A stretch of DNA of 38,673 nucleotides, taken from contig DASWUO010000059.1 in NCBI GenBank assembly GCA_036401615.1, positions 1 to 38,673 of the forward strand. Direction: 5' to 3'. Positions 11,845 to 38,673 of the stretch are shown piece by piece. A program made the translations under genes and the position numbers. Each line of letters begins with the position of its first letter. The stretch's first letter is position 1. This DNA comes from Bacilli bacterium (GTDB lineage Bacteria; Bacillota; Bacilli; Paenibacillales; DASWUO01). A model generated the notes under the pieces. The model made no database searches. It had not been told where the DNA came from and saw only the letters and a list, made by a program, of their open reading frames with translations.

Positions 11845-11856
11845 AATTTACAATGA

Positions 11857-12600: not shown

Positions 12601-12625
12601 GATTTCACCAGCCTGCCCACTTTCG

Positions 12626-14667: not shown

Positions 14668-14672
14668 CTAGA

Positions 14673-16054: not shown

Positions 16055-16234
16055 ACTTACCCCTCCTGTAAATTATTTAGCCTCTCGGCATTCGTTGAGC
16101 CAATACGGGACGAAGAATTCCTTGTACTGCTAAAATCATGTTGCGCAATTTCACAACTTCCGCTGCATTTTAATGTAAGCGCGCTTTCTGTATCCCCTCC
16201 TTATCCCGAGTGTAACTAGGCATTTTCATGTTAA

Positions 16235-16286
16235 TAAAGATAACACAAAAGGCCTATCCCTCTACATCGCTGTAGGGAGGATAGGC
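16235..16286 (-). terminator. Leader intrinsic terminator of the nrt-tat operon
   Basis: Minus-strand RNA GCCUAUCCUCCCUACA-gcga-UGUAGAGGGAUAGGC (about 15 bp with one bulge) followed by CUUUUGUGUUAUCUUUAUU. It lies about 285 nt upstream of the SBP start. Confidence 0.7.
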
Positions 16287-16325
16287 TTCATTGCCCTTAA
16301 GGAGTGACACATCATTGTGCTCCTT
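16283..16325 (-). promoter_or_regulatory. ANTAR-type dual hexaloop element (nrt leader)
   Basis: P1 is AAGGAGCAC[AAUGAU]GUG(uca)CUCCUU. P2 is GGGC[AAUGAA]GCCU. Both loops have A at position 1 and G at position 4. The P2 3' arm is the first 4 nt of the terminator 5' arm. Confidence 0.7.
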
Positions 16326-16337
16326 GTTGATATTGTT

Positions 16338-16366
16338 ATTATAAATGGCATTTTCGCATATGTCAA
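16338..16366 (-). promoter_or_regulatory. Sigma-A promoter of the nrt-tat operon
   Basis: On the minus strand: TTGACA (16366-16361), a 17-nt spacer, then TATAAT (16343-16338). Both hexamers match consensus. Confidence 0.7.
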
Positions 16367-16377
16367 TAAACATAACA
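16361..16377 (-). promoter_or_regulatory. TnrA/GlnR-type box overlapping the -35 of the nrt promoter
   Basis: The minus strand reads TGTTATGTTTATTGACA, which equals TGTNA-N7-TNACA exactly. Confidence 0.5.
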
Positions 16378-16433
16378 TTAAAATTTAAAATTCATTAATT
16401 ATGCGACCTTACTCGTCTTTTTTTCTCTTTATA

Positions 16434-16450
16434 TGTCATGTTTTCTTACA
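16434..16450. promoter_or_regulatory. TnrA/GlnR-type box
   Basis: TGTCATGTTTTCTTACA matches TGTNA-N7-TNACA. It sits inside the longer palindrome TATATGTCA...TTACATATA. Confidence 0.5.
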
Positions 16451-16541
16451 TATAAAGACTTCTGATCACCATTGGCGATAAAAAGTTACGCATCTTCTTC
16501 AGTTTTTGTATTTTACTCCAATGTCATCGATCAAAAGATTG

Positions 16542-16558
16542 TGTCAATATTAATAACA
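16542..16558. promoter_or_regulatory. TnrA/GlnR-type box
   Basis: TGTCAATATTAATAACA matches TGTNA-N7-TNACA. Confidence 0.5.
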
Positions 16559-16583
16559 TGAAGAAGATATACGAGAATTTTTA

Positions 16584-16600
16584 CGTTATGTTTATTGACA
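16584..16600 (+). promoter_or_regulatory. TnrA/GlnR-type box (one mismatch) overlapping the -35 of the nas promoter
   Basis: CGTTATGTTTATTGACA. 16 of its 17 nt are identical to the box at 16361-16377 read on the other strand. Confidence 0.45.
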
Positions 16601-16624
16601 TGACATAGTGAATCGTCTTATAAT
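16595..16624 (+). promoter_or_regulatory. Sigma-A promoter of the nasA-nasD-nasE-nasC operon
   Basis: TTGACA (16595-16600), an 18-nt spacer, then TATAAT (16619-16624). Confidence 0.7.
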
Positions 16625-16666
16625 CAAGTTATCACAATAAAGGTGACTGCATATTGATTAATGAAT

Positions 16667-16703
16667 TTAAACACAACGTTGTGTTTAATTGGCAATGAGG
16701 CCA
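16667..16703 (+). promoter_or_regulatory. ANTAR-type dual hexaloop element (nas leader)
   Basis: P1 is UUAAACAC[AACGUU]GUGUUUAA (8 bp). P2 is UGGC[AAUGAG]GCCA. Both loops are A1/G4. The P2 3' arm GCCA lies within the terminator 5' arm AGGCCAU. Confidence 0.7.
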
Positions 16704-16754
16704 TTTCGGGATCCATAAGGATCTTCAGATGGCCTTTTTATGTGTTTTATTTTT
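16698..16754 (+). terminator. Leader intrinsic terminator of the nas operon
   Basis: AGGCCAUUUCGGGAUCC-auaa-GGAUCUUCAGAUGGCCU pairs 17 positions with one C-C mismatch and three G-U wobbles. It is followed by UUUUAUGUGUUUUAUUUUU. Confidence 0.75.
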
Positions 16755-16788
16755 AAAAAATAGAAAAAATTTCAAGGGAGAATCTACT

Positions 16789-18027
16789 ATGGAAGAAAAA
16801 AGTTTTTTAAAAAGCGGCCACAAGCCATCATTGTTCAGTTCTTTTCTTTATTTCGACATCAGTTTTATGGTTTGGGTGCTAATGGGTCCACTGGCAGTTG
16901 TGATTATGAGCGATTTTCAAATGGATGCAGCGCAAAAAGCTAATTTAGTTGCTCTTCCAATTTTAGGCGGTTCCATTCTTCGATTGGTGCTTGGTTGGAT
17001 GACGGATTATATCGGTCCCAAAAAGACTGGACAAATTGGTTTAATTGTTACCATGATCCCTTTAGTAATGGCTTGGCAATTTGTGGAGACTTTAAGCGGA
17101 TTGTATATCACTGCATTATTGCTGGGTGTTGCCGGAGCGAGTTTCGCGGCTGCCTTGCCGCTGGCAAGCCGTTGGTATCCGCCGCAGCATCAGGGTTTGG
17201 CGATGGGCATAGCCGGAGCGGGAAACAGCGGCACGATTATTACTACGCTGTTCGCTAATCGAATTGCCCAGCATTATGGGGATTGGCATATAGTCTTTGG
17301 ATTCGCCCTGATTCCTGTGGTTCTGACCTTTATAGCTTTTACCTTATTGGCTAAGGATAGCCCGGATCAGCCTGCACCCAAGAAGTTTGCCGACTATGCC
17401 GTCGTTCTAAAACAAAAGGATACTTGGTTATTCTGTATGCTCTATAGTGTCACCTTCGGCGGATTTGTGGGGATGGCAAGTTATTTAACGATATTTTTTA
17501 ATACTCAATATGGCTTGGCTCCAATTGCTGCTGCAAATTTTACAACAATCTGCGTCATTGCGGGCAGTTTCTTCCGCCCGGTAGGCGGGTGGCTTTCCGA
17601 TAAAGTTGGCGGCATTCGGATGTTGACAATTCTTTATCTAGGCATTGCCCTGATGCTTGCCGGAGTTTCCACTTTGCCTGCGCTTGGACTTACTACTGCG
17701 ATGCTTTTTGTCGGGATGATGTGTATGGGGATGGGGAATGGCGCAGTATTCCAACTAGTACCGCAGCGGTTTAAGCAGGAAATTGGGATTATGACAGGAA
17801 TTGTTGGAGCGGCTGGAGGCCTTGGGGGATATTTCTTGCCTAAGATATTAGGAAACTTAAAGCTGTCCTCCGGTTCTTTCACTCCTGGGTTTCTGGTACT
17901 TAGTGTCATTGCCGTCAGCTGCATTGGGATCCTCCTTATTGCGCAAGGCCAATGGAAGAAAACCTGGATCGGCCAAGGCGGAAAAGCCAAGAAAGATGTG
18001 GTTGGGGCGCAAGTACAAGCCAGTTAG
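16789..18027 (+). CDS. nasA: MFS nitrate/nitrite transporter (NarK/NasA type)
   Basis: 12-TM MFS with NarK-like Gly-rich motifs (GGSILRLVLGWMTDYIGPKK, GIAGAGNSG). I moved the start to ATG 16789 (AAGGGAG 8 nt upstream) because the track ATG 16729 lies inside the terminator stem. Confidence 0.9.
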   Translation: MEEKSFLKSGHKPSLFSSFLYFDISFMVWVLMGPLAVVIMSDFQMDAAQKANLVALPILGGSILRLVLGWMTDYIGPKKTGQIGLIVTMIPLVMAWQFVETLSGLYITALLLGVAGASFAAALPLASRWYPPQHQGLAMGIAGAGNSGTIITTLFANRIAQHYGDWHIVFGFALIPVVLTFIAFTLLAKDSPDQPAPKKFADYAVVLKQKDTWLFCMLYSVTFGGFVGMASYLTIFFNTQYGLAPIAAANFTTICVIAGSFFRPVGGWLSDKVGGIRMLTILYLGIALMLAGVSTLPALGLTTAMLFVGMMCMGMGNGAVFQLVPQRFKQEIGIMTGIVGAAGGLGGYFLPKILGNLKLSSGSFTPGFLVLSVIAVSCIGILLIAQGQWKKTWIGQGGKAKKDVVGAQVQAS

Positions 18028-18052
18028 TAAATTAAAAGGAGCTGAAATCACC

Positions 18053-20473
18053 ATGGTACAGATGAAGAAGTTAGTTCTCATAGGAAACGGAATGGCAGGG
18101 GTCAACACAGTTGAACATATCTTGAAATTAGCGCCGAATAAATTTGATATTACGATTTTCGGTACTGAACCTCACCCCAATTACAACCGCATCCTGCTTT
18201 CCTACGTGCTTTCAGGCGATTCCAGTGTTAATGATATTGTTATCAACAGCTATGAATGGTATGAATCCAATGGAATTACCCTCTATACGGACCACACTGT
18301 AACTGAAATTAACACTGAGCAACAAACCGTTACCAGCAATCAAGGAGTTTGTGTTGCTTATGATCAACTTATTATCGCAACCGGGTCCAATCCCTTTATG
18401 CTTCCCCTGCCTGGTGCAGATAAAGAAGGCGTCATGGCTTACCGTACAATACAGGATTGCGAGAAGATGATTGAAGCCTCTAAAACATTAAAAAAAGCCA
18501 TTGTTATCGGCGGCGGTTTACTTGGTCTGGAAGCGGCAAGAGGCTTTCTGAATTTAGGCATGAAAGTCGATGTCGTGCATATTTGCGGCTCTATTATGGA
18601 ACGCCAACTGGATCCAACAGCCTCCAGCATGTTGCGTGAAGCTTTAGAGGCACAAGGAATGAACTTTTTGCTGGAAAAACAATCTGCAGAAATCATCGGA
18701 AACGAGCATGTCACCGGGCTTAAATTTAAAGACGGCACTAAAGCCGACGGCGATTTAATCGTTATGGCTGTTGGGATCAGACCAAATGTAGAGTTGGCTA
18801 AAAGAGCCGGTATTGAAGTCAATCCTGGAATTGTTGTCGATGACTATCTTCGAACCAATATTCCCAATGTATACGCAGTAGGTGAATGCGCCCAGCACCG
18901 CGGGATCGCATACGGCTTGGTAGCCCCTCTGTATGAGCAAGGTGCGGTTCTCGCTAAACATATTACTGAAGTAGAAACGGCACCGTATGAAGGATCCATT
19001 CTCTATACCAAACTTAAAGTATCCGGTGTAGATGTTTTCTCGGGCGGTCAATTTATGGAAAGCCCCGGAACCAAAGCCATTCGCATCCATGACGAATTTG
19101 CCGGAATTTATAAAAAAGTGCTGATCAAGGAAAATAAAATCATCGGGGCTGTTTTATTCGGAGACACTTCCGATGGAACCAGACTGATGCAGATGATTCG
19201 TAATCAAACGGATATCAGCGGCTATGATAAAACAGCCCTTCTTATTGAAACAGGAGGCAACACCAACGACTCCTCGAACGTTGCGGAAATGACGGATGAT
19301 AGCATTATTTGCGGCTGCAACGGCGTAAGCAAAGGTACCATTTGTTCAGCGATCAAAACCCAAGGTTTATCTACTGTAGAAGAAGTAAAGAATTGCACTA
19401 CAGCTTCACGCTCGTGCGGGGGCTGCAAGCCGCTCGTCAGTGATTTATTAGCTTATACACTTGGTGATCAATATGATAAAACGGCAGTGAAAGAATCAAT
19501 GTGTGGATGCACCACATTGTCCCGTGATGAAATTCTTGAGCAAATCCGTGAAAAAGAATTATTACACATTCGCGAAGTCATGAACGTACTTGAATGGAAG
19601 ACCGCGGAAGGCTGTTCCAAATGCAGACCTGCCCTTAATTACTACCTTGCCATGATCAATCCGACAGAATATGTGGATGACAGCACTTCCCGTTTTGTCA
19701 ACGAACGGATGCACGCTAATATTCAAAAAGATGGCACCTACTCTGTTATCCCGCGCATTTATGGCGGAGTGACCAACCCTGCCGAGCTTAAACGCATTGC
19801 TGAGGTGGCCGAGAAATTTAACATCCCTACAGTAAAATTTACAGGAGGCCAGCGTCTTGATCTGCTGGGTGTGAAGAAAGAAGATTTGACCCAAGTTTGG
19901 GAAGCACTTGATATGCCTTCCGGTTATGCTTATGGCAAAGCTTTACGAACGGTCAAAACATGTGTAGGCCAGGATTATTGCCGCTTTGGCACCGCAGATT
20001 CCATGGGTATGGGAATACGGATGGAAAAACGCTTTGAACGTTTAAACACACCCGCTAAAGTGAAGATGGCCGTATCCGGTTGTCCGCGAAATTGTGCAGA
20101 GTCCGGAATTAAGGATTTAGGAGTTGTTGCCATTGATGGCGGCTGGGAGCTCTATGCCGGCGGTAATGGAGGAGTAAAGATACGTGCAGGCGATCTCCTT
20201 GCAACTGTAAAAACGGAAGACGAGGTCATCGAATATACCGAGGCTTATTTACAATATTATCGAGAGACTGCCATTTATTTAGAAAGAACCTCAGATTGGG
20301 TAAAACGTGTTGGCATTCAACCTATCCGGGATGTTATCCTGGATGCTGAAAAACGGATTGGACTTTGTGATAGAATGAATACTGTCTTATCTGTAACAAC
20401 GGATCCTTGGAAAGAGGCAATTGATAACGAAAAAATTCAAAAAGACTTATACGAGGTTATTGAAATAAAATAG
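18053..20473 (+). CDS. nasD: Assimilatory NAD(P)H nitrite reductase large subunit
   Basis: FAD/NAD fold (KLVLIGNGMAG), two BFD-like 2Fe-2S modules (CGCNGVSKG..CGGC and CGCTTLSRD..CSKC), and siroheme/4Fe-4S cysteines (CVGQDYCRFG, SGCPRNCAES). Start set to ATG 18053 after the nasA stop, behind AAAGGAG. Confidence 0.93.
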   Translation: MVQMKKLVLIGNGMAGVNTVEHILKLAPNKFDITIFGTEPHPNYNRILLSYVLSGDSSVNDIVINSYEWYESNGITLYTDHTVTEINTEQQTVTSNQGVCVAYDQLIIATGSNPFMLPLPGADKEGVMAYRTIQDCEKMIEASKTLKKAIVIGGGLLGLEAARGFLNLGMKVDVVHICGSIMERQLDPTASSMLREALEAQGMNFLLEKQSAEIIGNEHVTGLKFKDGTKADGDLIVMAVGIRPNVELAKRAGIEVNPGIVVDDYLRTNIPNVYAVGECAQHRGIAYGLVAPLYEQGAVLAKHITEVETAPYEGSILYTKLKVSGVDVFSGGQFMESPGTKAIRIHDEFAGIYKKVLIKENKIIGAVLFGDTSDGTRLMQMIRNQTDISGYDKTALLIETGGNTNDSSNVAEMTDDSIICGCNGVSKGTICSAIKTQGLSTVEEVKNCTTASRSCGGCKPLVSDLLAYTLGDQYDKTAVKESMCGCTTLSRDEILEQIREKELLHIREVMNVLEWKTAEGCSKCRPALNYYLAMINPTEYVDDSTSRFVNERMHANIQKDGTYSVIPRIYGGVTNPAELKRIAEVAEKFNIPTVKFTGGQRLDLLGVKKEDLTQVWEALDMPSGYAYGKALRTVKTCVGQDYCRFGTADSMGMGIRMEKRFERLNTPAKVKMAVSGCPRNCAESGIKDLGVVAIDGGWELYAGGNGGVKIRAGDLLATVKTEDEVIEYTEAYLQYYRETAIYLERTSDWVKRVGIQPIRDVILDAEKRIGLCDRMNTVLSVTTDPWKEAIDNEKIQKDLYEVIEIK

Positions 20474-20516
20474 GTTGACTCGAGAACATATAAGGTAACG
20501 AAGGGAATGATCAGCC

Positions 20517-20861
20517 ATGAGTTTACAGACAGCGACTGCAATATGGGTAGAAGTTGCCTCCTACGATGAACTTCCTGTGAACACAGGTAAGACCGTGCGT
20601 TATCAGGGGCAAGAGGTGGCGTTATTCAAACTAAGCAACGGCAATCTCAAGGCGATTGAAAATCGATGTCCCCATAAGAATGGCGTCCTTGCTGAGGGGA
20701 TCGTATGCGATGACCATGTATTCTGCCCCATGCATGACCGCAAAATCCAACTTTCGACAGGGCTGGTACAAGCGCCTGATACGGGATGTGTAAAAACTTA
20801 TAATGTGACTGTAAAAGAGGGTAAAGTGTATATTGAATTTACAAAGGCGACTTTTTCATAA
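20517..20861 (+). CDS. nasE: Nitrite reductase small subunit (Rieske-like)
   Basis: 114 aa with CPHKNG...CPMHD Rieske-type ligands, immediately downstream of nasD. Confidence 0.9.
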   Translation: MSLQTATAIWVEVASYDELPVNTGKTVRYQGQEVALFKLSNGNLKAIENRCPHKNGVLAEGIVCDDHVFCPMHDRKIQLSTGLVQAPDTGCVKTYNVTVKEGKVYIEFTKATFS

Positions 20862-20876
20862 CTGGGGTGATTTGAA

Positions 20877-23048
20877 ATGACTACTATAAATTCGACAGCG
20901 TCCTTATCCCAAACTTTACTTCCAGCCTTATCTTCTATTAAAACATCCCATTGTTGTTTTTGCAGCATGCAGTGCGAAATACAATTAGAGCCGAGCGATA
21001 AGGAACCCGGGCTAGTTGTTAAACCAAGCCCGGATTTCCCTGTTGCTACAGGGCGGCTCTGTCAAAAAGGATTTAATGTTCTGGATCATGTGCTGCATCC
21101 TTCTCGAATAACCGTCCCCCTAAAGAGGAGAAATACTGAAACTGGAAGTGTTCCCAATGAGTTCGCTGAAAAATATAACCCTGCCGTGTGGCAGCAAAAC
21201 GATTGGAATACAACACTAACAGAAATTGCCTCGAAAATAAAAGCAATTCAAGCTGATCATGGGCATAATTCAGTTGCTGTATACGGCGGCGGTTCCGTAA
21301 CCAATGAAGTTTGTTATTTGCTCGGCAAATTTACAAGAGTTGCCCTCCGATCCAAATATATAGATTATAACGGGCGATTTTGTATGTCTTCTGCTGCTGC
21401 AGCCGCGAATAAGGCATTTGGCGCCGATCGCGGTATGACAATGCCATTATCGGAAATACCAAAAGCCAAGTATATCCTGCTGGCTGGAACTAATATTGCC
21501 GAATGCCAACCTACCCTAATGCCTTACCTAATGGAAGCTAAGAAAAGCGGGGCAACCATCGTTACGATAGATCCCCGCCATACGATGACCTCCAAACTTG
21601 CCGATATTCACGTCCGCCTTCAACCCGGCTTTGACTCTGTCTTTGTTAACGGCTTACTCCATGTGATCATATCGGAGAAGTTGTATAACTCACCTTATGT
21701 TGAATTGCACACAAATGGATTAACCCAACTGATGGAAGCTGTAAAATCTTTCACACCGGCTCGGGTTGAGGCCCTTACTGGTGTACTAGAAGCCGTTATC
21801 CGGACTATCGCCCGCGGTTTCGCAAATGCTGAAACAGGAATGGTTCTAACTGCCCGCGGCCTTGAGCAGCAAGTGAATGGTGTAGAAAACACACTAAATT
21901 ATATCAATCTGAGCTTGCTTACGGGCAAGATGGGTAAGCCCGGCTGCGGTTTTGGCTCCATTACGGGTCAAGCCAATGGCCAAGGAGGGCGGGAGCACGG
22001 GCAGAAGGCCGACCAACTCCCGGGTTACAGGCTTATAGAGGACCCGGCCGCTCGGGAGCACGTGGCTAAAGTCTGGGGTATCCACCCTGATGAACTCCCC
22101 GGGAAAGGTGTCTCTGCCTATGAAATGATTCAAAAAATAGATCAAGGTGAAATAAAGGCGATGATTGTCCTCGGATCCAATCCCGTCGTTTCCTGTCCAA
22201 ACAGTCATTTTGTTGAGCAAGCTTTAAAAAAGTTAGAGCTGTTGGTTGTGGTTGACTTATTCGAAACCGAAACTGCCGCCTATGCCCACTGGCTTCTTCC
22301 CGGCTCCTCCTTTCTTGAAGGCGAAGGCACACTGACGAATCTCGAAGGACGTGTATTTCATCGGCCTCAAGCGCTGGACTTACCCGGCGAAACCAAGCTT
22401 GATTATAAATTGATTTGTGAATTGGCTGAATACTTGGGTCGGGGGGATTTCTTCCAGTATAACTCCATTGAAGATGTATTTAATGAACTTACGGCTGCTA
22501 CTGCCGGAGGCATTGCAGATTACAGCGGCATCACTTATCAGCGATTAATAGAAGAAAAGGGCGTATTCTGGCCCTGTCCTTCTGAAAACCACCCGGGTAC
22601 CCCTACCATGTTCATTCATGGTTTTTACCACCCCGATGGGAAAGCAAAGCTATTTGGTATAGAGCCCCAGATGCCCGCTGAACCGATTGACCGGGAATAT
22701 CCTTATATTCTTACTACTGGTCGGGTGGCTAATCATTATCTAAGCGGAGTCCAAACACGGCGTTCCCCGGGGTTAAATAAGAAAGCTCCGGTCCCTGTTG
22801 CCGAAATCCACCCATGGTTAGCCAAGAAGATTGGCCTCGGCATAGAAAGCAAGATTCGCATCACCAGCCGGCGCGGCTCTCTTATTGTTCAAGCAAAGAT
22901 TTCAGAATCCATCCAACCCCAAACCGTATTTGTCCCCTTTCACTGGGGAGGGGAATTGTCGATTAACCGCCTCACCAATGATGCCCTTGATCCCACCAGC
23001 CGGATGCCGGAATTTAAGATTTGTGCCGTACAGATCGAGTCCACTTAA
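20877..23048 (+). CDS. nasC: Assimilatory nitrate reductase catalytic subunit (molybdopterin oxidoreductase)
   Basis: N-terminal 4Fe-4S motif HCCFCSMQC...RLCQKG, a MopB core and a C-terminal molybdopterin dinucleotide-binding barrel. No signal or Tat motif, so it is cytoplasmic. Confidence 0.9.
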   Translation: MTTINSTASLSQTLLPALSSIKTSHCCFCSMQCEIQLEPSDKEPGLVVKPSPDFPVATGRLCQKGFNVLDHVLHPSRITVPLKRRNTETGSVPNEFAEKYNPAVWQQNDWNTTLTEIASKIKAIQADHGHNSVAVYGGGSVTNEVCYLLGKFTRVALRSKYIDYNGRFCMSSAAAAANKAFGADRGMTMPLSEIPKAKYILLAGTNIAECQPTLMPYLMEAKKSGATIVTIDPRHTMTSKLADIHVRLQPGFDSVFVNGLLHVIISEKLYNSPYVELHTNGLTQLMEAVKSFTPARVEALTGVLEAVIRTIARGFANAETGMVLTARGLEQQVNGVENTLNYINLSLLTGKMGKPGCGFGSITGQANGQGGREHGQKADQLPGYRLIEDPAAREHVAKVWGIHPDELPGKGVSAYEMIQKIDQGEIKAMIVLGSNPVVSCPNSHFVEQALKKLELLVVVDLFETETAAYAHWLLPGSSFLEGEGTLTNLEGRVFHRPQALDLPGETKLDYKLICELAEYLGRGDFFQYNSIEDVFNELTAATAGGIADYSGITYQRLIEEKGVFWPCPSENHPGTPTMFIHGFYHPDGKAKLFGIEPQMPAEPIDREYPYILTTGRVANHYLSGVQTRRSPGLNKKAPVPVAEIHPWLAKKIGLGIESKIRITSRRGSLIVQAKISESIQPQTVFVPFHWGGELSINRLTNDALDPTSRMPEFKICAVQIEST

Positions 23049-27447: not shown

Positions 27448-29514
27448 ATGAGCAAGCTAGTTTTCATGAAAAACTTATCAACCAAAATATCATCCGATTT
27501 ATCTAATCTATGGAGAAGGCCGGGAACAAAACGAAAGCTGTTAGTGAACTTATTGGTTGGCATTGTTGTTTGTTTAGCCTTATTGGCTTTGATGGTTTCC
27601 CTTTGGATCAGTACTTTAAACATTTCCAAGCTGAACAACCCTATGTCCTCTCCCACTTTTATCATGGATAAAAACGGAAAAAAAGTGTCACAATTGTCCT
27701 CCACCAAGAGTGAACCTGTACCCATCGCCAAAATCCCAAAACAGCTGCAGCATGCCATTGTTGCGGTTGAAGATCAACGATTTTTCGAACACGCCGGTGT
27801 AGACTTAAGGTCGATTGGCCGGGCTTTAGTGACCAATGCCAAATCAGGTTCTTCCCAGGGAGCAAGTACCATTACCCAACAGCTGGCCAAAAATTTGTTC
27901 CTTTCCTCCGAGCAAACGTTAAGCCGGAAACTTAAGGAGGCAGCCTACGCTCTAAAAATCGATTTAAGACATAACAAGGAAGAAATTCTTGAACTTTATT
28001 TAAATAATATTTATATGGGAGAAGGGCAATGGGGTGTTCAGGCGGCATCCAAAGTATATTTTGGCAAGAATGTGGAGGAACTTAATTTGGAAGAATCGGC
28101 CATGCTGGCGGCACTCCCGAAGGCTCCTTCCCATTATTCCCCTCTTAGGCATATGGAGGCTGCGCTGGAACGGCGAAATCTTGTTCTTTCCTTAATGATG
28201 GATCAGAAATATATTACTGTGGAGGAGTTTAAGCAAGCCGAGGCCAAGCCGATAGCCTTAAAAAAGGATGAAGGCGAACAGTTAAAAGGCCAATATGCCT
28301 CTTATGTTGACCACGTGCTGGAAGAAGCTGAGGATCTTTATGGATACACGGAAGATGAACTTCTCTCAAGCGGTCTGCTTATCTATACGGAGCTTGATCC
28401 GATAGTTCAAGAAGCCGCTGAGAAAGTATACAGCAATCCTGAGTTTTTCCCCGTTAGTAAAGATGATCAACTAATCCAAAGCGGGACCGTGATATTGGAT
28501 CATAAAAACGGCGGGATTCGTGCACTAATTGGTTATCGGGGAAAAGGTGTTTTTCGCGGATTCAATCATGCCACTCAATTAAAACGCCAGCCCGGTTCAT
28601 CCTTCAAGCCACTGATCGTGTATGGTCCGGCTTTGGAAAAAGGATATACGCCCAATTCCAAATTATATGACGGCGATCTGGACATCAATGGTTATCGTCC
28701 GGTAGATTGGGATCACCAAACCCGGGGTGAGGTCACTATGAGCGAAGCTATAAGCCAATCATGGAACATTCCCGCAGTGTGGCTGCTTAACGAGATTGGG
28801 ATTGATACCGGCATGAATTTTGCCCGAAAAGCAGGTATTCCTCTTACCAAAGAAGATCGAACTTTAGGGATTGCTCTGGGAGGACTATCCACCGGAGTTT
28901 CTCCTTTACAGATGGCTCAGGGATTCCAGACCTTCTCCAACTTAGGCGTTATGTTTAAAGCCCATGCCATTATCAAGATCACAACGCGGGACGGTAAAGT
29001 TTTAAATCAAGCAAAGCCTGTCCCGGTTCAAGTGACAAGTCCCAAGAATGCCTACACTATGACGCTGCTCTTGGAGAAAGTGGTAACCGTTGGTGTTGGA
29101 ACGAATGCTAAACTTGACCGCCCTACTGCCGGCAAAACAGGAACCACCGAACTTCCCGATACCAAAGAATTTGCCAATATCGACAGCAAAGGGGTCAAAG
29201 ATGCTTGGTTCGTGGGGTATACCCCTGAATTAACTGCAGCGGTTTGGGTAGGTTATGACGTAACAGACAGTAATCATTATTTGACAACCTCCGGGGGAAA
29301 AGTGCCTTCGGTTATATTCCGTGAAATCCTTACCCTCGCTTTGCAAAATGTGCCTCCTACGCCTTTCATCATTCCTAAAGGAATGAAGGAGGAGAAAAAG
29401 AAAGAGCGCAAGGAAGACAAAGGACGCAAAGAAGACCGTGACGACAATAACAATGAGGATGAAGGCGGTGGTGGTGATCGTAAAGGAAGAGGAAAAGGAA
29501 AGAGCGATAATTAA
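27448..29514 (+). CDS. Class A penicillin-binding protein (transglycosylase/transpeptidase)
   Basis: N-terminal TM, GT51 motif EDQRFFEHAGVD, transpeptidase motifs SSFKP, SWN and KTGTT. The C-terminus is a Lys/Glu/Asp/Gly low-complexity tail. Confidence 0.93.
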   Translation: MSKLVFMKNLSTKISSDLSNLWRRPGTKRKLLVNLLVGIVVCLALLALMVSLWISTLNISKLNNPMSSPTFIMDKNGKKVSQLSSTKSEPVPIAKIPKQLQHAIVAVEDQRFFEHAGVDLRSIGRALVTNAKSGSSQGASTITQQLAKNLFLSSEQTLSRKLKEAAYALKIDLRHNKEEILELYLNNIYMGEGQWGVQAASKVYFGKNVEELNLEESAMLAALPKAPSHYSPLRHMEAALERRNLVLSLMMDQKYITVEEFKQAEAKPIALKKDEGEQLKGQYASYVDHVLEEAEDLYGYTEDELLSSGLLIYTELDPIVQEAAEKVYSNPEFFPVSKDDQLIQSGTVILDHKNGGIRALIGYRGKGVFRGFNHATQLKRQPGSSFKPLIVYGPALEKGYTPNSKLYDGDLDINGYRPVDWDHQTRGEVTMSEAISQSWNIPAVWLLNEIGIDTGMNFARKAGIPLTKEDRTLGIALGGLSTGVSPLQMAQGFQTFSNLGVMFKAHAIIKITTRDGKVLNQAKPVPVQVTSPKNAYTMTLLLEKVVTVGVGTNAKLDRPTAGKTGTTELPDTKEFANIDSKGVKDAWFVGYTPELTAAVWVGYDVTDSNHYLTTSGGKVPSVIFREILTLALQNVPPTPFIIPKGMKEEKKKERKEDKGRKEDRDDNNNEDEGGGGDRKGRGKGKSDN

Positions 29515-29522
29515 AAAGAATA

Positions 29523-29550
29523 CCGTTAACATTAGAAATAATGTTAACGG
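29523..29550. terminator. Bidirectional hairpin between convergent PBP and MoaD-like genes
   Basis: CCGTTAACATT-agaaat-AATGTTAACGG, an 11-bp perfect stem with A/T-rich flanks. Confidence 0.65.
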
Positions 29551-29561
29551 CATTGAATATT

Positions 29562-29837
29562 TTATCCTCCTGAGACGGCTTGCAGCACATGTATCCGGTC
29601 TCCCGGTTGGAGTGTTATATCCAACCGTTCCATCTGGACGATGTTTTCGCTGTTATAATAGATTAATACGTGTTGGCGTAGATCCCCCTCCTCATTATAA
29701 AGGTGCTTACGCAACAACGGATAAGTTTCCAGCATTTTACTCAGGGCATCTTTCAGCTTTTCCGCTTCTACTGAAAATTTTACTTGTCCATTTGTACAAT
29801 CACTCAACAGGGATGGAACACTTATTTCAATATGCAT
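29562..29837 (-). CDS. MoaD/ThiS/CysO-like ubiquitin-fold sulfur-carrier protein (C-terminal GG)
   Basis: 91 aa ending VLQAVSGG. The overall pattern resembles CysO-type carriers. The ATG lies 1 nt after the upstream stop, with GGAGGA inside the upstream gene's last codons. Confidence 0.8.
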   Translation of the reverse strand: MHIEISVPSLLSDCTNGQVKFSVEAEKLKDALSKMLETYPLLRKHLYNEEGDLRQHVLIYYNSENIVQMERLDITLQPGDRIHVLQAVSGG

Positions 29838-29838
29838 T

Positions 29839-30936
29839 TCAGTCCTCCAAAATCCACATTTTCACAGAGAGAATGCGGGATAGTTGACCCGGCAAACGAC
29901 CCCAATTCTTACCTCTATCAAGGGAGTAGAACACTTCACCTGATGTGGTTCCAAAGTATAAGCCGTAGGGATCCAAGGTATCCACCGTCGCCGCATCACG
30001 TAATACATTCACATGCTGCTGTTCATTAGGAACTACATCTCCAATAGGTTCCCAGCGGTCACTGCCTTTAAGCATACCGTAAACCAATAGTTTTCCGTCA
30101 CGCATCGTGCGTTTCTCACTACTCTCAAGCGGGATTAGAAATGAATCTCCCGTATTTGAAGTACAGATGGGAAAACCAAAAGGATCATTATTAGAAACAT
30201 TCAACCCGTCTTCAATAGGAAACCAAGAATCTGCCCCATCGGTTGATTTAAAGACACCTCCATGTTCCTGCATGTAAAGAGTATTTGAATCATTCGGATC
30301 CAAGGTCATTTTGTGAATGCAATAACCTACTTCATCATAGGGTTGACCGGTTGGCACCCTCCCTAACCCTTTATTACAAGTGATCCATGTCTCCCCGCCA
30401 TCATCAGTGCGGAAAACTCCTACCGCAGACATGGCTACCCATATCCGATGCGGATTACTTGGATGAATAAGGATAGTGTGTAAACACATCCCCCCTGCCC
30501 CCGGAAACCAATTCGGACGACTGGAATGTTTCGTAAGACCCTCTAATTCCCGCCAAGTGGCTCCACGGTCTCTACTAACAAACAAACCAGCCTCTTCTAC
30601 TCCGGCATAGAGGGTATCCGGCTCGGATGAATGCCCTTTAATGATCTGCCAAATTCGGTTGAGTGAAAACCCGCTTTCTTTTGAGTAACTTGGGCCATCT
30701 TCGATTTGGGTCCAACTGCTTCCAAAGTCATCGCTTACCCGAATGGTTGGACCATAAGCAGCATGGGAAGTTCCGGCAAAAATTCTGTTTCCATGTCTGC
30801 TATCTCCTAGAACACTGTACACTTCCCAACCAGATAAATATGGACCGCTTAAATTCCAGTTTTGCCGTTCATGGTCCGAAGTATAGAAGAAAAGCCCTTT
30901 ATTTGTACCAACCAGCAACATCACACGTTTACCCAT
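29839..30936 (-). CDS. Cytoplasmic BNR/Asp-box repeat beta-propeller protein
   Basis: 365 aa with five Asp-boxes (SDDFGSSW, SRDRGATW, TDDGGETW, STDGADSW, SLDRGKNW) and no signal peptide. Confidence 0.75.
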   Translation of the reverse strand: MGKRVMLLVGTNKGLFFYTSDHERQNWNLSGPYLSGWEVYSVLGDSRHGNRIFAGTSHAAYGPTIRVSDDFGSSWTQIEDGPSYSKESGFSLNRIWQIIKGHSSEPDTLYAGVEEAGLFVSRDRGATWRELEGLTKHSSRPNWFPGAGGMCLHTILIHPSNPHRIWVAMSAVGVFRTDDGGETWITCNKGLGRVPTGQPYDEVGYCIHKMTLDPNDSNTLYMQEHGGVFKSTDGADSWFPIEDGLNVSNNDPFGFPICTSNTGDSFLIPLESSEKRTMRDGKLLVYGMLKGSDRWEPIGDVVPNEQQHVNVLRDAATVDTLDPYGLYFGTTSGEVFYSLDRGKNWGRLPGQLSRILSVKMWILED

Positions 30937-31489
30937 CTTTTTCCTCCATTAATAAAAATCTTTCAGCGTTGTATTCTAAACAGTAATTCGCCGTTCCCTA
31001 TTGTTATCCTCTTCTTACAAAAAAGAATAGTTCGACATACCATGGGGCTTAATTTTTAATTATAACATCAACTATGGCACAATGATGCCAACCTTAGGAA
31101 TTAAATTACATAATATTTGTATTTTCTCCGTGATTCGGGTAGTTATTGCAATGTTATGCTCTAATGGGGACTGATCGTTCCGCACTAATGCATGACTTGC
31201 CTTATCTCCATTATTTTTGAATAAATGAGTCAACAATATTGCATAACCAATCGTGATTATCGCAATGCTTCACCATATCTCCCCCGACCAACACTCACTG
31301 TTGTATTTTTTAAGACAAACCTCCATTTTGTTTGCTTTTAATATAAATAATATATATTAATGTTTGTGTATAGGCAATTTCGAGATCCTACTAGTCTGCA
31401 TATATTAAGTTATTGTATAGATTTTATTGAACTATCCCTTTATAATAGAGCGTGTTCATATGATTCTATGAATTATGGAAGGACTTCCA

Positions 31490-34568: not shown

Positions 34569-35393
34569 TTACAATAAGCCTTGGCCTTTCATCGCTCTTT
34601 CGAGCACTTCATATCCAAGGAATCCTGCCCCTTCAGCACTAACCCATTCATTTAAGCCTTCCATCTCCATCATGTGACGAATGACGGATTGTGTTGGATC
34701 CATAGCAAACAAGAGCTCCGTAAACCGTTGGCCCACGGCATCGTCAAACTCAGGCAGCACCGTAAAGTTGCAATGCGAATACCCCGGGGAGGTCCAAATT
34801 CCGTGAATCTCGTTCGTGTTCGCCAACCCTTGCTCCAGCATACGTATCCAAGTGGATTCACCAATAGCTCCGGCATCGGCTTCTCCCTGCTTCAGGGCTC
34901 GCAATACTTCATATTCACTCGTTCCGGTATCGCCATGTTTTCCCACATCCATATTAAAACGCAGCAGTTCTATATCTTTTTCAGGATCAATACCGTTTTC
35001 CTTCAGAAAATAGTAAGGTAGTATAGCCGCTTGAGCAGAATCTGCACTCCCTAATGCGACTTTCTTGCCTTTTAAATCCTGCAAAGCCTGAATACCTTTA
35101 TCCGCACGGGCAATGATTTTGGTAGTATAGTCGATGTCGGTATCCCTCATGCCCAATACTTTTGCCCGGCCCCCCAGCTTTCCTTGCAATTGAATGTAGG
35201 CCACATTCGTATTCCATCCAATATCAATAAACCCCTTCAATAAGGCGTCTACCTGCGCTTCATAGTTGGAAAACAAGACGTAATCCAAAGGCAACCCGTT
35301 TTCTTGATAGTAGGCGCGAATAATATCCCAAATGGCGATGACTTTAGGATCATAAGCAACTGAGCCCAGCAATAATGTGTTCTTCTTAGTCAT
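34569..35393 (-). CDS. PhnD/SsuA-fold substrate-binding-like protein without signal peptide
   Basis: From MTKKNTLLLGSVAYDPK the sequence runs straight into the type-II binding-protein fold. There is no signal peptide or lipobox, and no permease or ATPase partners. ATG 35393 lies behind AAGGGG; the track start is 35459. Confidence 0.72.
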   Translation of the reverse strand: MTKKNTLLLGSVAYDPKVIAIWDIIRAYYQENGLPLDYVLFSNYEAQVDALLKGFIDIGWNTNVAYIQLQGKLGGRAKVLGMRDTDIDYTTKIIARADKGIQALQDLKGKKVALGSADSAQAAILPYYFLKENGIDPEKDIELLRFNMDVGKHGDTGTSEYEVLRALKQGEADAGAIGESTWIRMLEQGLANTNEIHGIWTSPGYSHCNFTVLPEFDDAVGQRFTELLFAMDPTQSVIRHMMEMEGLNEWVSAEGAGFLGYEVLERAMKGQGLL

Positions 35394-35419
35394 GGATATA
35401 CCCCTTGTCCGTATTTTTT

Positions 35420-36547
35420 TTAAAATAAAGGAAGCCCGGCAACGGATTTTCCAACCCATTCCTTCAGCACCTCGGTAGTCGGGCCCATCACAGAGCCAGC
35501 GCGGGCATCGCGTAAATACCGCTCAACAGGCATGCTGCGCAAATAACCTTGTCCACCGCAAACCTGCATGGCCAGATTGGTTACCTTATTTACACTTTCT
35601 GATGCGAGTATCTTGGACTGCATTACATTCAAGATAGCACCCTCTTGTCCTTGAACAGCCCCTGCCGCAGCGCTGCGCGTGAAGAGCGAGGAAGCTTCAA
35701 CCAACCCGTACATCTCCGATAAATAAAACTGGATCGCTTGAATTTCCGCAAGGGCGCGTCCATCGGCATGCTTTCTTGTTTTTGCATGTTCTAGCGCGGC
35801 CGTATAAGCCCCTTTGGCTAAACCGTTGTTTACCCCAGCCACTCCTAGAATAAAAGTAGGCGCCACCACTTGGAAGATAAGGCCCAGACCGTCACCTTCA
35901 GCACCCACAAGTTGATCCGCCCTTATATGGGCATGATTTAATTCCATAGCAATGCTGTTATTTCCTGATAATCCAATACCCTCCCAAGTTCCTTCGAAGG
36001 TTAATCCTTTTGCATCTCGATCTACTATAAACATATCCAAGCCTAAACCCGGTGTGGAAGCATTCGTTAATACAACTAGAAAATCAGCCTTATCCCCGTT
36101 AGTAACGAAGCATTTGCGGCCATTAAGCACATAATGGTTATCTTCTTTCTTGGCTTTAATTTCAGGCATGTAGAAATGTGCACCTGTACCCGTCTCACTA
36201 AAAGCCAAGGTGCCGATTTTCTGTCCCTCAGCAATAGGCCGTAAATATCGCTCCTGCTGATCTGCAGTTGCTTTCGAAGCTATTACGGCAGTACCGCAGC
36301 AGTGCATCAAATAACACATGGCTGTAGAACCGCAAGCTTGAGCGATTAACTCGGTTACAGCGGTTAAATCCTCTAATGTCCCACCTAATCCGCCATGCTC
36401 CTTAGAAACCAATAAACCTAATAATCCGGCCTCTCCGAGTTTTTGAAAGGCTTCTTGGGGAAACCTGCGTTGTGCGTCAATTTCTGCGGCTAATGGAGCA
36501 ATTACTTCTCTGGTAACTTTTGCTGCAGATTGTAGGATCATCGTCAT
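35420..36547 (-). CDS. Acyl-CoA dehydrogenase-fold flavoprotein (MCAD-type catalytic Glu absent)
   Basis: 375 aa with the typical ACAD three-domain pattern. The C-terminal RDA...YEGT block reads RDARAGSVMGPTTEV, so Gly replaces the Glu376-equivalent. Confidence 0.82.
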   Translation of the reverse strand: MTMILQSAAKVTREVIAPLAAEIDAQRRFPQEAFQKLGEAGLLGLLVSKEHGGLGGTLEDLTAVTELIAQACGSTAMCYLMHCCGTAVIASKATADQQERYLRPIAEGQKIGTLAFSETGTGAHFYMPEIKAKKEDNHYVLNGRKCFVTNGDKADFLVVLTNASTPGLGLDMFIVDRDAKGLTFEGTWEGIGLSGNNSIAMELNHAHIRADQLVGAEGDGLGLIFQVVAPTFILGVAGVNNGLAKGAYTAALEHAKTRKHADGRALAEIQAIQFYLSEMYGLVEASSLFTRSAAAGAVQGQEGAILNVMQSKILASESVNKVTNLAMQVCGGQGYLRSMPVERYLRDARAGSVMGPTTEVLKEWVGKSVAGLPLF

Positions 36548-36582
36548 TTGGGGTTTTCTCCTTATATAAGTTAAATTAAGAA

Positions 36583-37869
36583 TTACATAAAATTCGGGGT
36601 ATGCGCTAAAGAAATTTTCTCAGCTGTTTCCAAGTCAAGTCCAATATGAAGCAATCGCTGAATCCGGTGCTCGTTCATCGTTTCCTTCAACCTGCCCAAC
36701 CGTTCAAATCCAACCTGCAGCTTTTCGGGACTGCGCCCTCCGCCAGCTATGATCGCCAGAGCTTCCATAAGATGGGTATTCTCACTGCTGCCTACATCGG
36801 ATAAATAAGTGTTGCGTTCCTCCGAGGCTTGAATAAGTGCATGAATCATATTGGGGTTCTTGCTTAACATATAACGCACATGACCGATTCCATAAGCAAC
36901 ATGGCGGCTTTCATCGATCTTCGCCAGATAAACAATTTTGCGGGTTACCGGATCCGGCGCATATTCTTCAATGTAGCTCAGCAGATCCAAGAAAGTCCCT
37001 TCCCCCAGCACATGAAGCAGGAAGGAAGACTTGAAATAATCCTCTTGGATAAACAGGCTGTTAAGGGAACGCTCTGTCAGGACGGAGGAGTATTGCAGCC
37101 CGCCGCCGCCAGCCATGGCACGCTTGATAAAAGCTTCAATATGCCTCGCTTCATCCTGAATTAAAGTGGATAGATACATACACACTTCAATATAATGCGG
37201 ATTAATGCGGGCTATAAACTTGGCCGGAATATAGAGCGCAGAATATTCGTTCTCTGCCAGAAAGGTCATGATCTGGCAGACGGCCCATTCCAATTCTTCC
37301 GGCAGATCCGGCAGTTGATCCCATGGAATATCGGTCGTTGCATTCCATTGGCCTTCTTTGGACTGCTCATATAAATCGAGTAAGTTGTCAGCCCAAACTT
37401 CATCCTTCCTGTTCAGGGTAAACCCGAAATCAGGCACACCAGATTCTGCTACAGCACCCCGCGGCACAAATCCGATGTACTTTGGCGCTTCATCCAACAG
37501 GTGGCCCAGACGCCCTTGAAACCAATCACGAATATCCAGCTTGGCTCCTTTCCGCAACGGAATCCGATGACCCCAATCCGGTTGACCGTTCACGGCAATC
37601 TGCTGCTTCTGCAGCAAGAGCCGAAAGTGGTCTCCTCCATCCATAGCATTGAGGAAAGTGGCTTTATGCAGCTTACACCACCCTCTCAAATCATCCTTTA
37701 CATGAGGGTTTGTGCTGACTACTTCCAGAACCTCCCCTTTATCCAGATGCTCCATGGCATTCTTCACAAGAAGAAACAGCTCGGATCCGCTTGGCATATT
37801 GCCTAATTCCAGCCTTCTGTCAGGCGTTATTCCCCGAATATCTACCTGATCGTTGGACACTTGCAACAC
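36583..37869 (-). CDS. Fusion of a Cys-less TusA/SirA-like domain with a ferritin-like diiron-carboxylate domain
   Basis: The N-terminus (~90 aa) resembles TusA (GEVLEVVSTNPHVKDDLRGWCKLHKATFL), but the CPxP cysteine site reads MPSG. The C-terminal half carries E(AENE)-x31-DEARH and E(GEG)-x29-DESRH diiron ligand spacing. Confidence 0.68.
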   Translation of the reverse strand: MLQVSNDQVDIRGITPDRRLELGNMPSGSELFLLVKNAMEHLDKGEVLEVVSTNPHVKDDLRGWCKLHKATFLNAMDGGDHFRLLLQKQQIAVNGQPDWGHRIPLRKGAKLDIRDWFQGRLGHLLDEAPKYIGFVPRGAVAESGVPDFGFTLNRKDEVWADNLLDLYEQSKEGQWNATTDIPWDQLPDLPEELEWAVCQIMTFLAENEYSALYIPAKFIARINPHYIEVCMYLSTLIQDEARHIEAFIKRAMAGGGGLQYSSVLTERSLNSLFIQEDYFKSSFLLHVLGEGTFLDLLSYIEEYAPDPVTRKIVYLAKIDESRHVAYGIGHVRYMLSKNPNMIHALIQASEERNTYLSDVGSSENTHLMEALAIIAGGGRSPEKLQVGFERLGRLKETMNEHRIQRLLHIGLDLETAEKISLAHTPNFM

Positions 37870-37878
37870 ATCGCTTCC

Positions 37879-38673
37879 TCAAAGAATATTTGATAGTTCT
37901 GCTATTTGGTTAATCATCATTTCCGTCGCTTCGTCTATGTTGTTGCAGCGGAAAGTAATCCGTTCCCCGGTAAAGTTCTCAATTGCATTCTTGTACCGGG
38001 GGTCATAGTGGTGCTCTAACAATAAATATACGGCTTCAGCAAAACGATCCGCATACAGGTGTTTTTCAATCTCTGCAGCGATTGGGGTATGAATTCGTTT
38101 TTTGATATATTGAAAGGCCTGGATACACGCCTCTTTCTGTTCTTGAGGCCGGTAATCTTCGAGTATATGTTTCACCCGTTCCTCCATCGGCAATTCAATA
38201 AACAACTGGATACCATTTTCCTTGGCATGAAACAAAAATTCGGGCATAACGGTTTTACCTATTCTTTTACTTTCGGCTTCCATCAGCAGATAAGGCGATT
38301 CGCTCCATTTCAACAGATCTTGCAATAGCAACGACTCAAACGTTTTCTGGTTATGAGCCTTAAGCCCAATGTGGCCAAATATGGATCCCCGATGAGCCGC
38401 CAGACCCTCCAGATCCAAAACAGGATACCTAAGCTCTTTAAGCCGAAGCAGCAAAGCGGTTTTCCCGGATCCGGTATTTCCGTTAATTACATAGACTTTA
38501 GGACGCAGGACATACGTCTCCAAAGTATCAACAACCCATTTGCGGTAAGCCCGAATCCCCCCGTTTAACCGATACACATGAATGTCCATAAGCGAAAGAA
38601 CAGTCGCTGTCGTCTTACTGCGCATGCCTCCACGCCAACAATACACTACCTTGCGTGATTCAATTCGCCCGAA
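37879..38673 (-). CDS. selU: tRNA 2-selenouridine synthase, C-terminal ~264 codons (N-terminus off the right edge)
   Basis: Rhodanese active-site loop YCWRGGMRS and P-loop GNTGSGKT with the RGSIFG block. The frame stays open to position 38673. Confidence 0.85.
   Translation of the reverse strand, partial: FGRIESRKVVYCWRGGMRSKTTATVLSLMDIHVYRLNGGIRAYRKWVVDTLETYVLRPKVYVINGNTGSGKTALLLRLKELRYPVLDLEGLAAHRGSIFGHIGLKAHNQKTFESLLLQDLLKWSESPYLLMEAESKRIGKTVMPEFLFHAKENGIQLFIELPMEERVKHILEDYRPQEQKEACIQAFQYIKKRIHTPIAAEIEKHLYADRFAEAVYLLLEHHYDPRYKNAIENFTGERITFRCNNIDEATEMMINQIAELSNIL

Follow-up and report, generated by a model that had tools for sequence, protein, structure and literature searches.

Why should a cytoplasmic Asp-box beta-propeller, a protein commonly annotated as a sialidase, be translated together with a small carrier protein that ends in Gly-Gly? 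This question is raised by a locus in a Bacilli metagenome-assembled genome (MAG; Paenibacillales, DASWUO01; GenBank assembly GCA_036401615.1), on contig DASWUO010000059.1, whose 38,673 nucleotides (nt) were analysed at full length and are referred to below as the window. Our results indicate that the propeller and carrier genes form a real and widespread functional module, found in many bacterial phyla and in archaea, which is apparently undescribed. The pair and its signals are laid out as follows, with lengths in amino acids (aa) taken from the list of open reading frames (ORFs).

29839-30936, minus strand: propeller gene, 365 aa
29562-29837, minus strand: carrier gene, 91 aa, C-terminus ...LQAVSGG
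29848-29843, minus strand: carrier Shine-Dalgarno GGAGGA, within the last propeller codons, 5 nt ahead of the carrier ATG
29519-29554, directly 3' of the carrier stop: hairpin with a 16-bp stem, then a T-run (terminator scan)
31059-31090, minus strand: candidate promoter region about 120 nt upstream of the propeller ATG, read from the sequence with low confidence

On the sense strand the junction reads TTG GAG GAC TGA A ATG CAT, with the single base 29838 between the propeller TGA (29841-29839) and the carrier ATG (29837-29835). A preliminary description of the locus, made from its letters alone, had reported this one-nucleotide spacing and a GGAGGA formed by the last propeller codons, and both are read directly from the sequence at 29848-29835. 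The junction TTGGAGGACTGAAATG is identical in a 94%-identical relative (L100; such handles denote our loci). The hairpin at 29519-29554, which separates the pair from a convergent PBP1-type gene (27448-29514), is likely the terminator of a bicistronic operon, while on the 5' side of the propeller a 538-bp intergenic region is followed by a divergent LtaS-type sulfatase-family gene. With a terminator on one side and this intergenic region and divergent gene on the other, the pair is a self-contained bicistronic unit. The candidate promoter has an extended -10 element, TGTTATAAT, at 31067-31059, preceded by a perfect palindrome, TGGCA-N6-TGCCA (31090-31075), which is a candidate operator for some regulator; a good -35 element is absent and the promoter scan did not list the region. 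Rfam, applied at gathering thresholds, gave no match in the window, and the 5' leader region returned nothing but noise, so that no riboswitch or leader naming the pathway was found; a role in anti-phage defence was rejected after PADLOC gave no match.

To assess the conservation of the pair, one genome per species was scanned, yielding 581 confirmed loci, of which the best 80, from many bacterial phyla, were kept; carriers were searched at these loci with a hidden Markov model iterated from the window carrier. A ThiS-like carrier ORF lies directly downstream of the propeller in 77 of the 80 loci, the two genes being a median of 5 nt apart (stop to start) and overlapping as ATGA in 22 of 73. 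When all ORFs of the 80 loci were clustered all against all, the propeller and the carrier were the only conserved genes. The preliminary description had considered the pairing within Firmicutes and Actinobacteria, and its distribution turns out to be far wider.

The linkage also survives rearrangement. In a proteobacterial clade with 26% identity (Ralstonia solanacearum, Burkholderia stagnalis and a Pseudomonas aeruginosa record) the order is reversed, carrier then propeller, and the records place a 'MoaD/ThiS family protein' directly upstream of an 'exo-alpha-sialidase'. The preliminary description had tentatively mentioned just such adjacent annotations, and these records bear it out, although it had assigned them to Gram-positives and the Ralstonia, Burkholderia and Pseudomonas records are Gram-negative. 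The order is likewise carrier then propeller in a Thermoplasmatota-like archaeal clade, with which four distinct natural fusions from separate assemblies cluster. In these the carrier, ending in ...(S/A)V(S/A)GG, is joined to the propeller by a linker of 6-12 residues.

P0155, P0271, P0272 and P0273 (L093:602-1966): single-ORF fusions of the form carrier-...VSGG/VAGG-linker-propeller, 434-467 aa when P0198 is included

The fusion P0198 is known from one search only, and the archaeal clustering refers to P0155 and P0271-P0273. An AlphaFold2 (AF2) model of a natural fusion has a mean predicted local distance difference test (pLDDT) score of 92.5 and a predicted template modelling (pTM) score of 0.81, which express overall confidence and do not give the position of the GG tail.

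Propeller and carrier distances are correlated (r = 0.95 overall; 0.48 in the main clade; observed value reached in 0 of 2000 permutations), which shows co-inheritance but not necessarily contact. When the window is compared with L100, the propeller has a ratio of nonsynonymous to synonymous substitution rates (dN/dS) of 0.059 and the carrier one of 0.122, indicating that both genes are under strong purifying selection in this E1-less arrangement, that is, away from any gene for a carrier-activating enzyme (E1). The flanks of L100 are entirely different from those of the window despite the 94% identity, and the pair behaves as a mobile two-gene cassette. With adjacency kept across phyla, through an inversion of gene order and in the form of natural fusions, the pairing is not due to chance, and we regard it as close to certain that the two proteins work together, in line with the functionally linked pair first suggested for this locus.

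The carrier matches the Pfam ThiS model PF02597 over residues 22-91 with 36.3 bits, against a cut-off of 22.5, and by this score and its terminal Gly-Gly it is a member of the ThiS/MoaD superfamily, whose carriers are prokaryotic roots of ubiquitin. All equivalog cut-offs of NCBIfam are missed: the best model, SAMP1 (NF041918), gives 53 against 60, the archaeal MoaD model (TIGR01687, moaD_arch) 38.6 against 49.5 and thiS 22.8 against 37.45, while the bacterial MoaD models give no match. The closest solved relative is CysO of M. tuberculosis (3dwg_C, 6e-6), followed by a SAMP1 homolog (2l52, 4.5e-5) and an Amycolatopsis ThiS/MoaD protein (6e-4). Since either the genomic context or the model cut-offs fall short in each case, the carrier stands outside the strict CysO, MoaD, ThiS and SAMP1 families, and to judge from its sequence it forms a separate subfamily on the CysO/SAMP1 side. 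The preliminary description had likewise placed the 91-aa GG protein nearer to CysO-type carriers than to the short MoaD. Nearly all of the 77 related carriers retain the GG, and they fall into two subtypes, ...AVSGG and ...GA(M/I)AGG, that follow two clades of the propeller.

How such a carrier could be activated is suggested by the relatives. Among the 30 window ORFs scanned with Pfam and NCBIfam there was no ThiF/MoeB, MoaE, JAMM or cysteine synthase gene, in agreement with what had been read from the letters. The missing E1, however, which had been presented as part of the oddity of the locus, is a property of this window and not of the system, as relatives carry ThiF or ThiF-rhodanese E1s in cis. 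In Paenibacillus silvisoli (75% identity), Cohnella candidum (72%) and a metagenome contig (73%), the carrier is followed after about 10-70 nt by a ThiF-family gene in the same orientation, and P. castaneae has a 160-aa ThiF remnant at this position. The E1s of these close relatives match the MoeB/ThiF model NF009123 from end to end, as does one that a Woeseiaceae genome has upstream of its pair. Within the 80-locus set, ThiF-family genes directly adjoin the pair at L008, L055, L063 and L077, and in the window clade this holds for L097, L098 and L101; those at L077, L063 and L008 are ThiF-rhodanese E1s. At an archaeal locus (L146) a ThiF gene is found about 0.7 kb off on the opposite strand, with two small genes between.

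In all, an E1 in cis occurs at 4 of 80 genome loci and at 3 of roughly a dozen loci of the window clade. By a rough estimate that takes about 3 ThiF genes per about 4,000 genes and two slots for neighbours, chance would account for about 0.1 in 80 loci. Fusion of a rhodanese to an E1 marks the enzymes that turn an acyl-adenylate into a thiocarboxylate (MoeZ, Uba4, MOCS3), and the rhodanese-fused E1s are the strongest pointer to the chemistry of the carrier. As relatives have cis E1s, the system looks ordinary, with a carrier that an E1 would activate and an E1 gene that mostly lies somewhere else in the genome. We consider that the carrier is quite probably activated by an E1 and, with somewhat less confidence, that the intermediate is a thiocarboxylate. 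The two roles first put forward for the carrier, sulfur delivery to the propeller or conjugation with its help, are still the right alternatives, and the rhodanese-fused E1s tilt the balance toward sulfur transfer without proving it. One arrangement is unusual in itself: in a Nitrospiraceae MAG, a single ORF with MoaE, ThiF and rhodanese parts (L008:4428-5990) lies directly upstream of the propeller and then the carrier, which puts a MoaE-E1 fusion near a MoaD-like carrier with the propeller gene between them.

The propeller itself belongs to a family with a known structure and no assigned function. It has five canonical Asp-boxes (at residues 68, 121, 177, 231 and 338) and no signal peptide, as the first beta-strand of the AF2 model starts at residue 3 and homologs begin at the same position without an N-terminal extension. 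This upholds the initial view that it is not a secreted sialidase. The model (pLDDT 91.8, pTM 0.91) has seven blades, and its sole close structural relative is PDB entry 3b7f (phmmer E 1.6e-55 over residues 5-358, about 33% identity; Foldseek TM 0.90/0.89, root-mean-square deviation 2.7 Å). The 3b7f protein, a structural-genomics entry, has been called 'functionally uncharacterized' and the type of its own family; its seven blades include five Asp-boxes, its closure is unusual and its tunnel, of 9 x 11 Å, is open (PMC2716378). On full-length sequence, fold, blade number and Asp-boxes, the window propeller is a member of this 3b7f / YP_299179.1 family. Conservation is high, the propellers of Paenibacillaceae, Chloroflexota and Rhodothermales sharing 60-79% identity. 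Database relatives of the propeller number at least 8,000, and with E <= 1e-30 the family comprises about 3,900 clusters at 50% identity, a count that includes unrelated long multi-repeat Asp-box proteins.

Homologs carry the source labels 'exo-alpha-sialidase', 'sialidase family protein' or 'glycosyl hydrolase', and each of the functions so implied was examined and rejected. Pfam finds only BNR and Sortilin-Vps10 repeat matches in the propeller. A GH33 sialidase is excluded by the missing match to BNR_2 (PF13088), by seven blades instead of six and by the absent signal peptide, and the sialidases matched in the PDB are limited to Asp-box segments (E 5e-4 to 0.6). A GH74 xyloglucanase requires two tandem seven-bladed propellers, whereas the protein is a single propeller of 365 aa with a GH74-normalised TM of about 0.3 and 14-17% identity. 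For Ycf48/HCF136, another frequent source label, NF010237 gives 15.5 bits against a cut-off of 326 and PF14870 14.7 against 27. The labels 'sialidase', 'glycosyl hydrolase' and 'PSII assembly factor' (photosystem II) are repeat-level artefacts.

A small set of residues is invariant in 77 propeller orthologs (C151, H153, C206, H208, Q223, R313 and D319), and H137 and H225 are conserved in 76 of the 77. Remote paralogs keep H153, H208, Q223, H225, R313 and D319, while both cysteines vary; likewise H153, H208, H225, Q223 and R313 are common to the window propeller and 3b7f, which is without C151 and C206. In Asp-box propellers the top face is the functional face, and the Asp-box itself is the bottom-face loop that joins strands 3 and 4 (PMC2716378). 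Mapping the AF2 strands onto this blade pattern would place the conserved residues where the innermost strands of blades 4, 5 and 7 begin, and in the blade 5 loop that joins strands 2 and 3; there they may surround the top-face opening of the central channel.

Based on these observations, we propose the following relay. The propeller and the carrier would be made from one bicistronic, translationally coupled mRNA. An E1 of the MoeB/MoeZ type, which would be encoded outside the 38.7-kb contig here and is found in cis in some relatives, would adenylate the Gly-Gly of the carrier, and a rhodanese persulfide would convert the adenylated C-terminus to a thiocarboxylate. The flexible ...AVSGG tail would then dock on the top face of the propeller at the central channel, in a pocket where H153, H208 and H225 could form a metal site and Q223 and R313 are candidates for a (thio)carboxylate clamp, with C151 and C206 added in the window clade. 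At this pocket the sulfur would pass to an acceptor that is not encoded beside the pair, so that the propeller would be the functional counterpart of MoaE, ThiG, CysM or TtuA. Of this scheme, the gene linkage, the family assignments, the recurring E1 and E1-rhodanese neighbours and the place of the conserved residues in the sequence are shown, whereas we infer that the carrier of this organism is thiocarboxylated, that its tail docks, that a metal is bound and that sulfur is transferred.

Taken as a whole, the reading in which an E1-thiocarboxylated carrier delivers sulfur at the propeller pocket to some acceptor, with the propeller as a sulfur-acceptor enzyme, stands an even chance in our judgement. 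A more specific version is tentative and rather doubtful: the propeller would be a new class of partner enzyme whose His3(+Cys2)/Arg pocket, possibly metal-dependent, takes sulfur from the carrier glycyl-thiocarboxylate or processes it, and the product would be a sulfur-containing metabolite, a cofactor or a protein persulfide. The idea of such a pocket gains appeal from peptidyl-alpha-hydroxyglycine lyase, also a propeller, which uses a three-His zinc site and an Arg to act on a C-terminal glycine derivative of a peptide; we treat it as a lead only.

Several findings weigh against sulfur delivery at the propeller. No gene that could name the substrate pathway is conserved near the pair in the neighbour censuses. 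A regular-expression screen, which is a crude test, found the JAMM motif in none of the ORFs of any locus, while about 8% of the carriers have 2-5 extra residues beyond the GG and the fusions bury it in a linker. Given the extensions, the buried GG and the missing JAMM motif, either a protease other than JAMM processes the carrier or a free C-terminus is not always needed; the fusions, if functional, would be cleaved after the GG by some protease or would act without a free C-terminus. The clustering of the conserved residues on the top face, and any metal site, are deduced from topology only. The Ralstonia/Pseudomonas clade is carrier-linked yet without both cysteines, and relatives in Streptomyces (L087) and Rhodobacter (L088) have no adjacent carrier, indicating that the Cys pair is not required for carrier linkage and that the propeller fold can work without an adjacent carrier. 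A full-text literature search found no paper on the pair; subscription-only literature lay outside that search, and a prior description is possible.

Two of these carrier-less paralogs are curious in their own right. The one on a plasmid of Streptomyces sp. NBC_00184 (L087:5992-7080) has a C-terminus of its own that reads ...AATIGG, possibly by coincidence, and the one on a plasmid of Rhodobacter sp. CZR27 (L088:3613-7140) is divergent to the ergothioneine genes egtB-egtD, a further sulfur-metabolite setting but a single case that may be due to chance.

Comparison with characterized systems helps to place the pair, as each known carrier has its dedicated acceptor enzyme (ThiG, MoaE, CysM, TtuA, NcsA). 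The CysO-MoeZ-CysM-Mec+ system of M. tuberculosis is similar in carrier size (91 against 93 aa), in the GG end and as the source of the best solved match, and the MoeZ-type ThiF-rhodanese E1s at L077, L063 and L008 fit its CysO-MoeZ part. It differs in its partner, however, since the window yielded neither CysM, a pyridoxal phosphate (PLP)-dependent cysteine synthase, nor a JAMM protease, and a beta-propeller stands in their place as the conserved partner, so that a CysO-type context is lacking. MoaD-MoaE with MoeB offers a small GG carrier translationally coupled to its partner enzyme, an E1 that is often elsewhere, and carrier-partner fusions, and L008 ties the pair to a MoaE-MoeB-rhodanese protein. 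On the other hand, the partner fold is a propeller, the carrier scores below the MoaD cut-offs and genes for the molybdenum cofactor (Moco) are not conserved neighbours. SAMP1/UbaA and Urm1/Uba4 provide the best NCBIfam model and the logic of an E1, often with a rhodanese, that leads to a thiocarboxylate, and our pair also occurs in Thermoplasmatota-like archaea; the score of 53 is nevertheless under the cut-off of 60, no tRNA-thiolation PP-loop enzyme is conserved beside the pair and the host is a bacterium.

For the propeller, the protein of 3b7f (Reut_B4987 / YP_299179.1, from Cupriavidus/Ralstonia eutropha JMP134) shares the fold, the seven blades, the five Asp-boxes and the five conserved His, Gln and Arg residues, and differs in its identity of about 33% and the two missing cysteines. 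Sortilin Vps10 and Ycf48 are Asp-box propellers too, and their matches in the PDB include peptide complexes (sortilin-neurotensin and Ycf48-D1 peptide). Both bind the C-terminal peptide of a partner, a precedent for a propeller that grips a flexible tail. Their similarity to the window propeller is nonetheless at the repeat level only (E 0.003-0.1), sortilin is ten-bladed and extracellular, and neither is an enzyme or linked to ubiquitin-fold carriers.

Other explanations of the pair have to be weighed against the relay. In a conjugation system like Urm1, SAMP or TtuB, the carrier would be attached covalently to proteins, and the propeller would be the main target, an E2/E3-like factor or a deconjugating one; a variant may couple this to persulfidation of C151 and C206, as has reportedly been described for Urm1 and the peroxiredoxin Ahp1. 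The SAMP1 model, the paired invariant cysteines adjoining invariant His residues, the carriers extended past GG and the GG-linker fusions, both of which resemble ubiquitin precursors, and the low-frequency recurrence of redox- or electrophile-type neighbours (HxlR in 10 of 80 loci; an extracytoplasmic function (ECF) sigma factor with YCII and VOC proteins) all speak for it, and PMC9574740 reportedly gives a precedent for attachment by a thiocarboxylate independent of E2 and E3. However, neither E2, E3 nor a JAMM protease or deubiquitinase is conserved or was seen in any locus, the cysteines are absent in the carrier-linked Ralstonia/Pseudomonas clade, and the rhodanese-fused E1s suit plain sulfur transfer at least as well. 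Conservation is so high across the entire top face that it suggests a catalytic site more than a modification target, and we judge conjugation unlikely. A slightly smaller likelihood is left for a link to Moco, in which the carrier would be a MoaD paralog for molybdopterin synthase and the propeller an accessory in Moco synthesis, sulfuration or insertion, for instance for the assimilatory nitrate reductase. Here the MoaE-ThiF-rhodanese ORF upstream of the pair at L008, the best match of the cis E1s of close relatives to a MoeB/ThiF model and the nitrate-assimilation genes near the pair in three independent lineages (the window, L001/L103 and L031) are set against the facts that only 1 of about 100 loci has MoaE next to the pair, that no other Moco gene recurs and that about 95% of the loci have no such link. 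The carrier is also under both MoaD model cut-offs, L100 has entirely different flanks at 94% identity, and Pseudomonas and Ralstonia presumably have complete separate moa operons.

The remaining alternatives dispense with the chemistry of the carrier. The beta-grasp protein could be a non-covalent subunit of the propeller, structural, regulatory or chaperone-like in the manner of TmoB, with no reaction at its C-terminus; the GG buried in the fusion linkers, the carriers that extend past GG, the lack of a nearby E1 in most loci and the confident overall model of a fusion all speak for such a complex. We nevertheless find this improbable, since the retention of GG in nearly all 77 carriers, even inside fusions, is hard to explain without C-terminal chemistry and since E1 genes, some with a rhodanese, are enriched beside the pair. 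A buried GG also has a parallel, as the fused MoaD-MoaE protein MoaX of M. tuberculosis is said to be cleaved at its GG before it works. That the propeller is after all a true glycosidase (an exo-alpha-sialidase or another), and its adjacency to the carrier meaningless, is suggested by the source annotations and by weak GH74 and GH33 structure matches arising from the Asp-box repeats. We hold this to be extremely improbable in view of the missing signal peptide and BNR_2 match, the restriction of sialidase similarity to the Asp-boxes, the single propeller with its low GH74-normalised TM, and the pairing and fusions described above. Single loci do have glycoside hydrolases nearby, but carbohydrate-utilisation genes are not among the recurrent neighbour families.

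The neighbourhoods were also surveyed for further partners. Neither ORF clustering of the 80 loci nor a Pfam census of 149 nearest and 138 second-nearest neighbours, in which nothing rose above 4 members, revealed a third conserved gene, and no PLP sulfhydrylase or JAMM protein was among these neighbours of the 80 loci. The most frequent other neighbours are HxlR (10 of 80), ECF sigma factors (8 of 80) and YCII (4 of 149 nearest and 4 of 138 second-nearest). An ECF sigma factor with a DUF6596-type C-terminal region, together with YCII and VOC/PhnB-like proteins, adjoins about 10% of the pairs, in loci that belong to unrelated phyla (L090, P. aeruginosa pZYPA1927; L024, L038, L047, L048, L058, L060, L073 and L078), and the pair could be in the regulon of that factor in those organisms. 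A link to cysteinyl-tRNA synthetase was taken as chance: one archaeal lineage (L094/L095) has the gene beside the pair and Burkholderia (L091) has it nearby, but three other archaeal loci lack it.

Two further regions of the window deserve mention. Positions 10004-23048 hold a complete nitrate-assimilation block.

10004-11044: TrpD-like glycosyltransferase-family-3 gene
11041-11661: ANTAR regulator
within the block: TatC
12987-15950: nitrate-type ATP-binding cassette (ABC) transporter
within the block: major facilitator superfamily (MFS) transporter, NasD and NasE
20877-23048: NasC, an enzyme with molybdenum-bis(molybdopterin guanine dinucleotide) (Mo-bisMGD)

In the window, 6.5 kb separate the pair from the nitrate-assimilation genes; such genes flank it in L001/L103 and are 3 kb away in Thiobacillus (L031), which amounts to a weak recurring association. 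At the other end of the window, an unusual run of four genes on the minus strand (34569-38646) is not conserved beside the pair elsewhere.

34569-35459, minus strand: solute-binding protein (SBP)-like protein of the Rv1680 family
35420-36547, minus strand: acyl-CoA dehydrogenase of the Rv1679/FadE16 family
36583-37869, minus strand: 428-aa protein with an N-terminal TusA sulfurtransferase domain and an R2-like ligand-binding-oxidase-like region
37879-38646, minus strand: 255-aa protein matching only positions ~92-337 of 346 of the model for MnmH (tRNA 2-selenouridine synthase), with the rhodanese part absent

Judged from these domains, the run looks like an uncharacterized cluster for handling sulfur or selenium.

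Surveys of prokaryotic ubiquitin-like gene neighbourhoods and of the beta-grasp fold (PMC1779556, PMC1949818) do not mention a propeller partner, the Asp-box family paper PMC2716378 likewise reports no association with a carrier, and a search of the literature on the presumed Pseudomonas locus tags (PAO1 numbering) returned nothing on function. The logic of a sulfur relay from E1 to carrier to acceptor is known; what would be new here is the fold of the acceptor, a propeller. If our reading is true, the pair adds to the known carrier acceptors one of a completely different fold. Thousands of 'exo-alpha-sialidase' annotations are almost certainly wrong, and if the propeller is indeed a new class of enzyme, a widespread system would have been overlooked through the 'sialidase' label, with a remote version in Pseudomonas aeruginosa and Ralstonia, while the crystal structure 3b7f has been available since 2007 without an assigned function. 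Window-type pairs occur in the cultured hosts Paenibacillus silvisoli and Cohnella candidum, and versions of the remote clade in Pseudomonas aeruginosa, Ralstonia solanacearum and Cupriavidus metallidurans. Together with an E1, the carrier and the propeller would make a two- or three-protein system that could be reconstituted in vitro in the search for new sulfur chemistry or for a bacterial Urm1-like modification.

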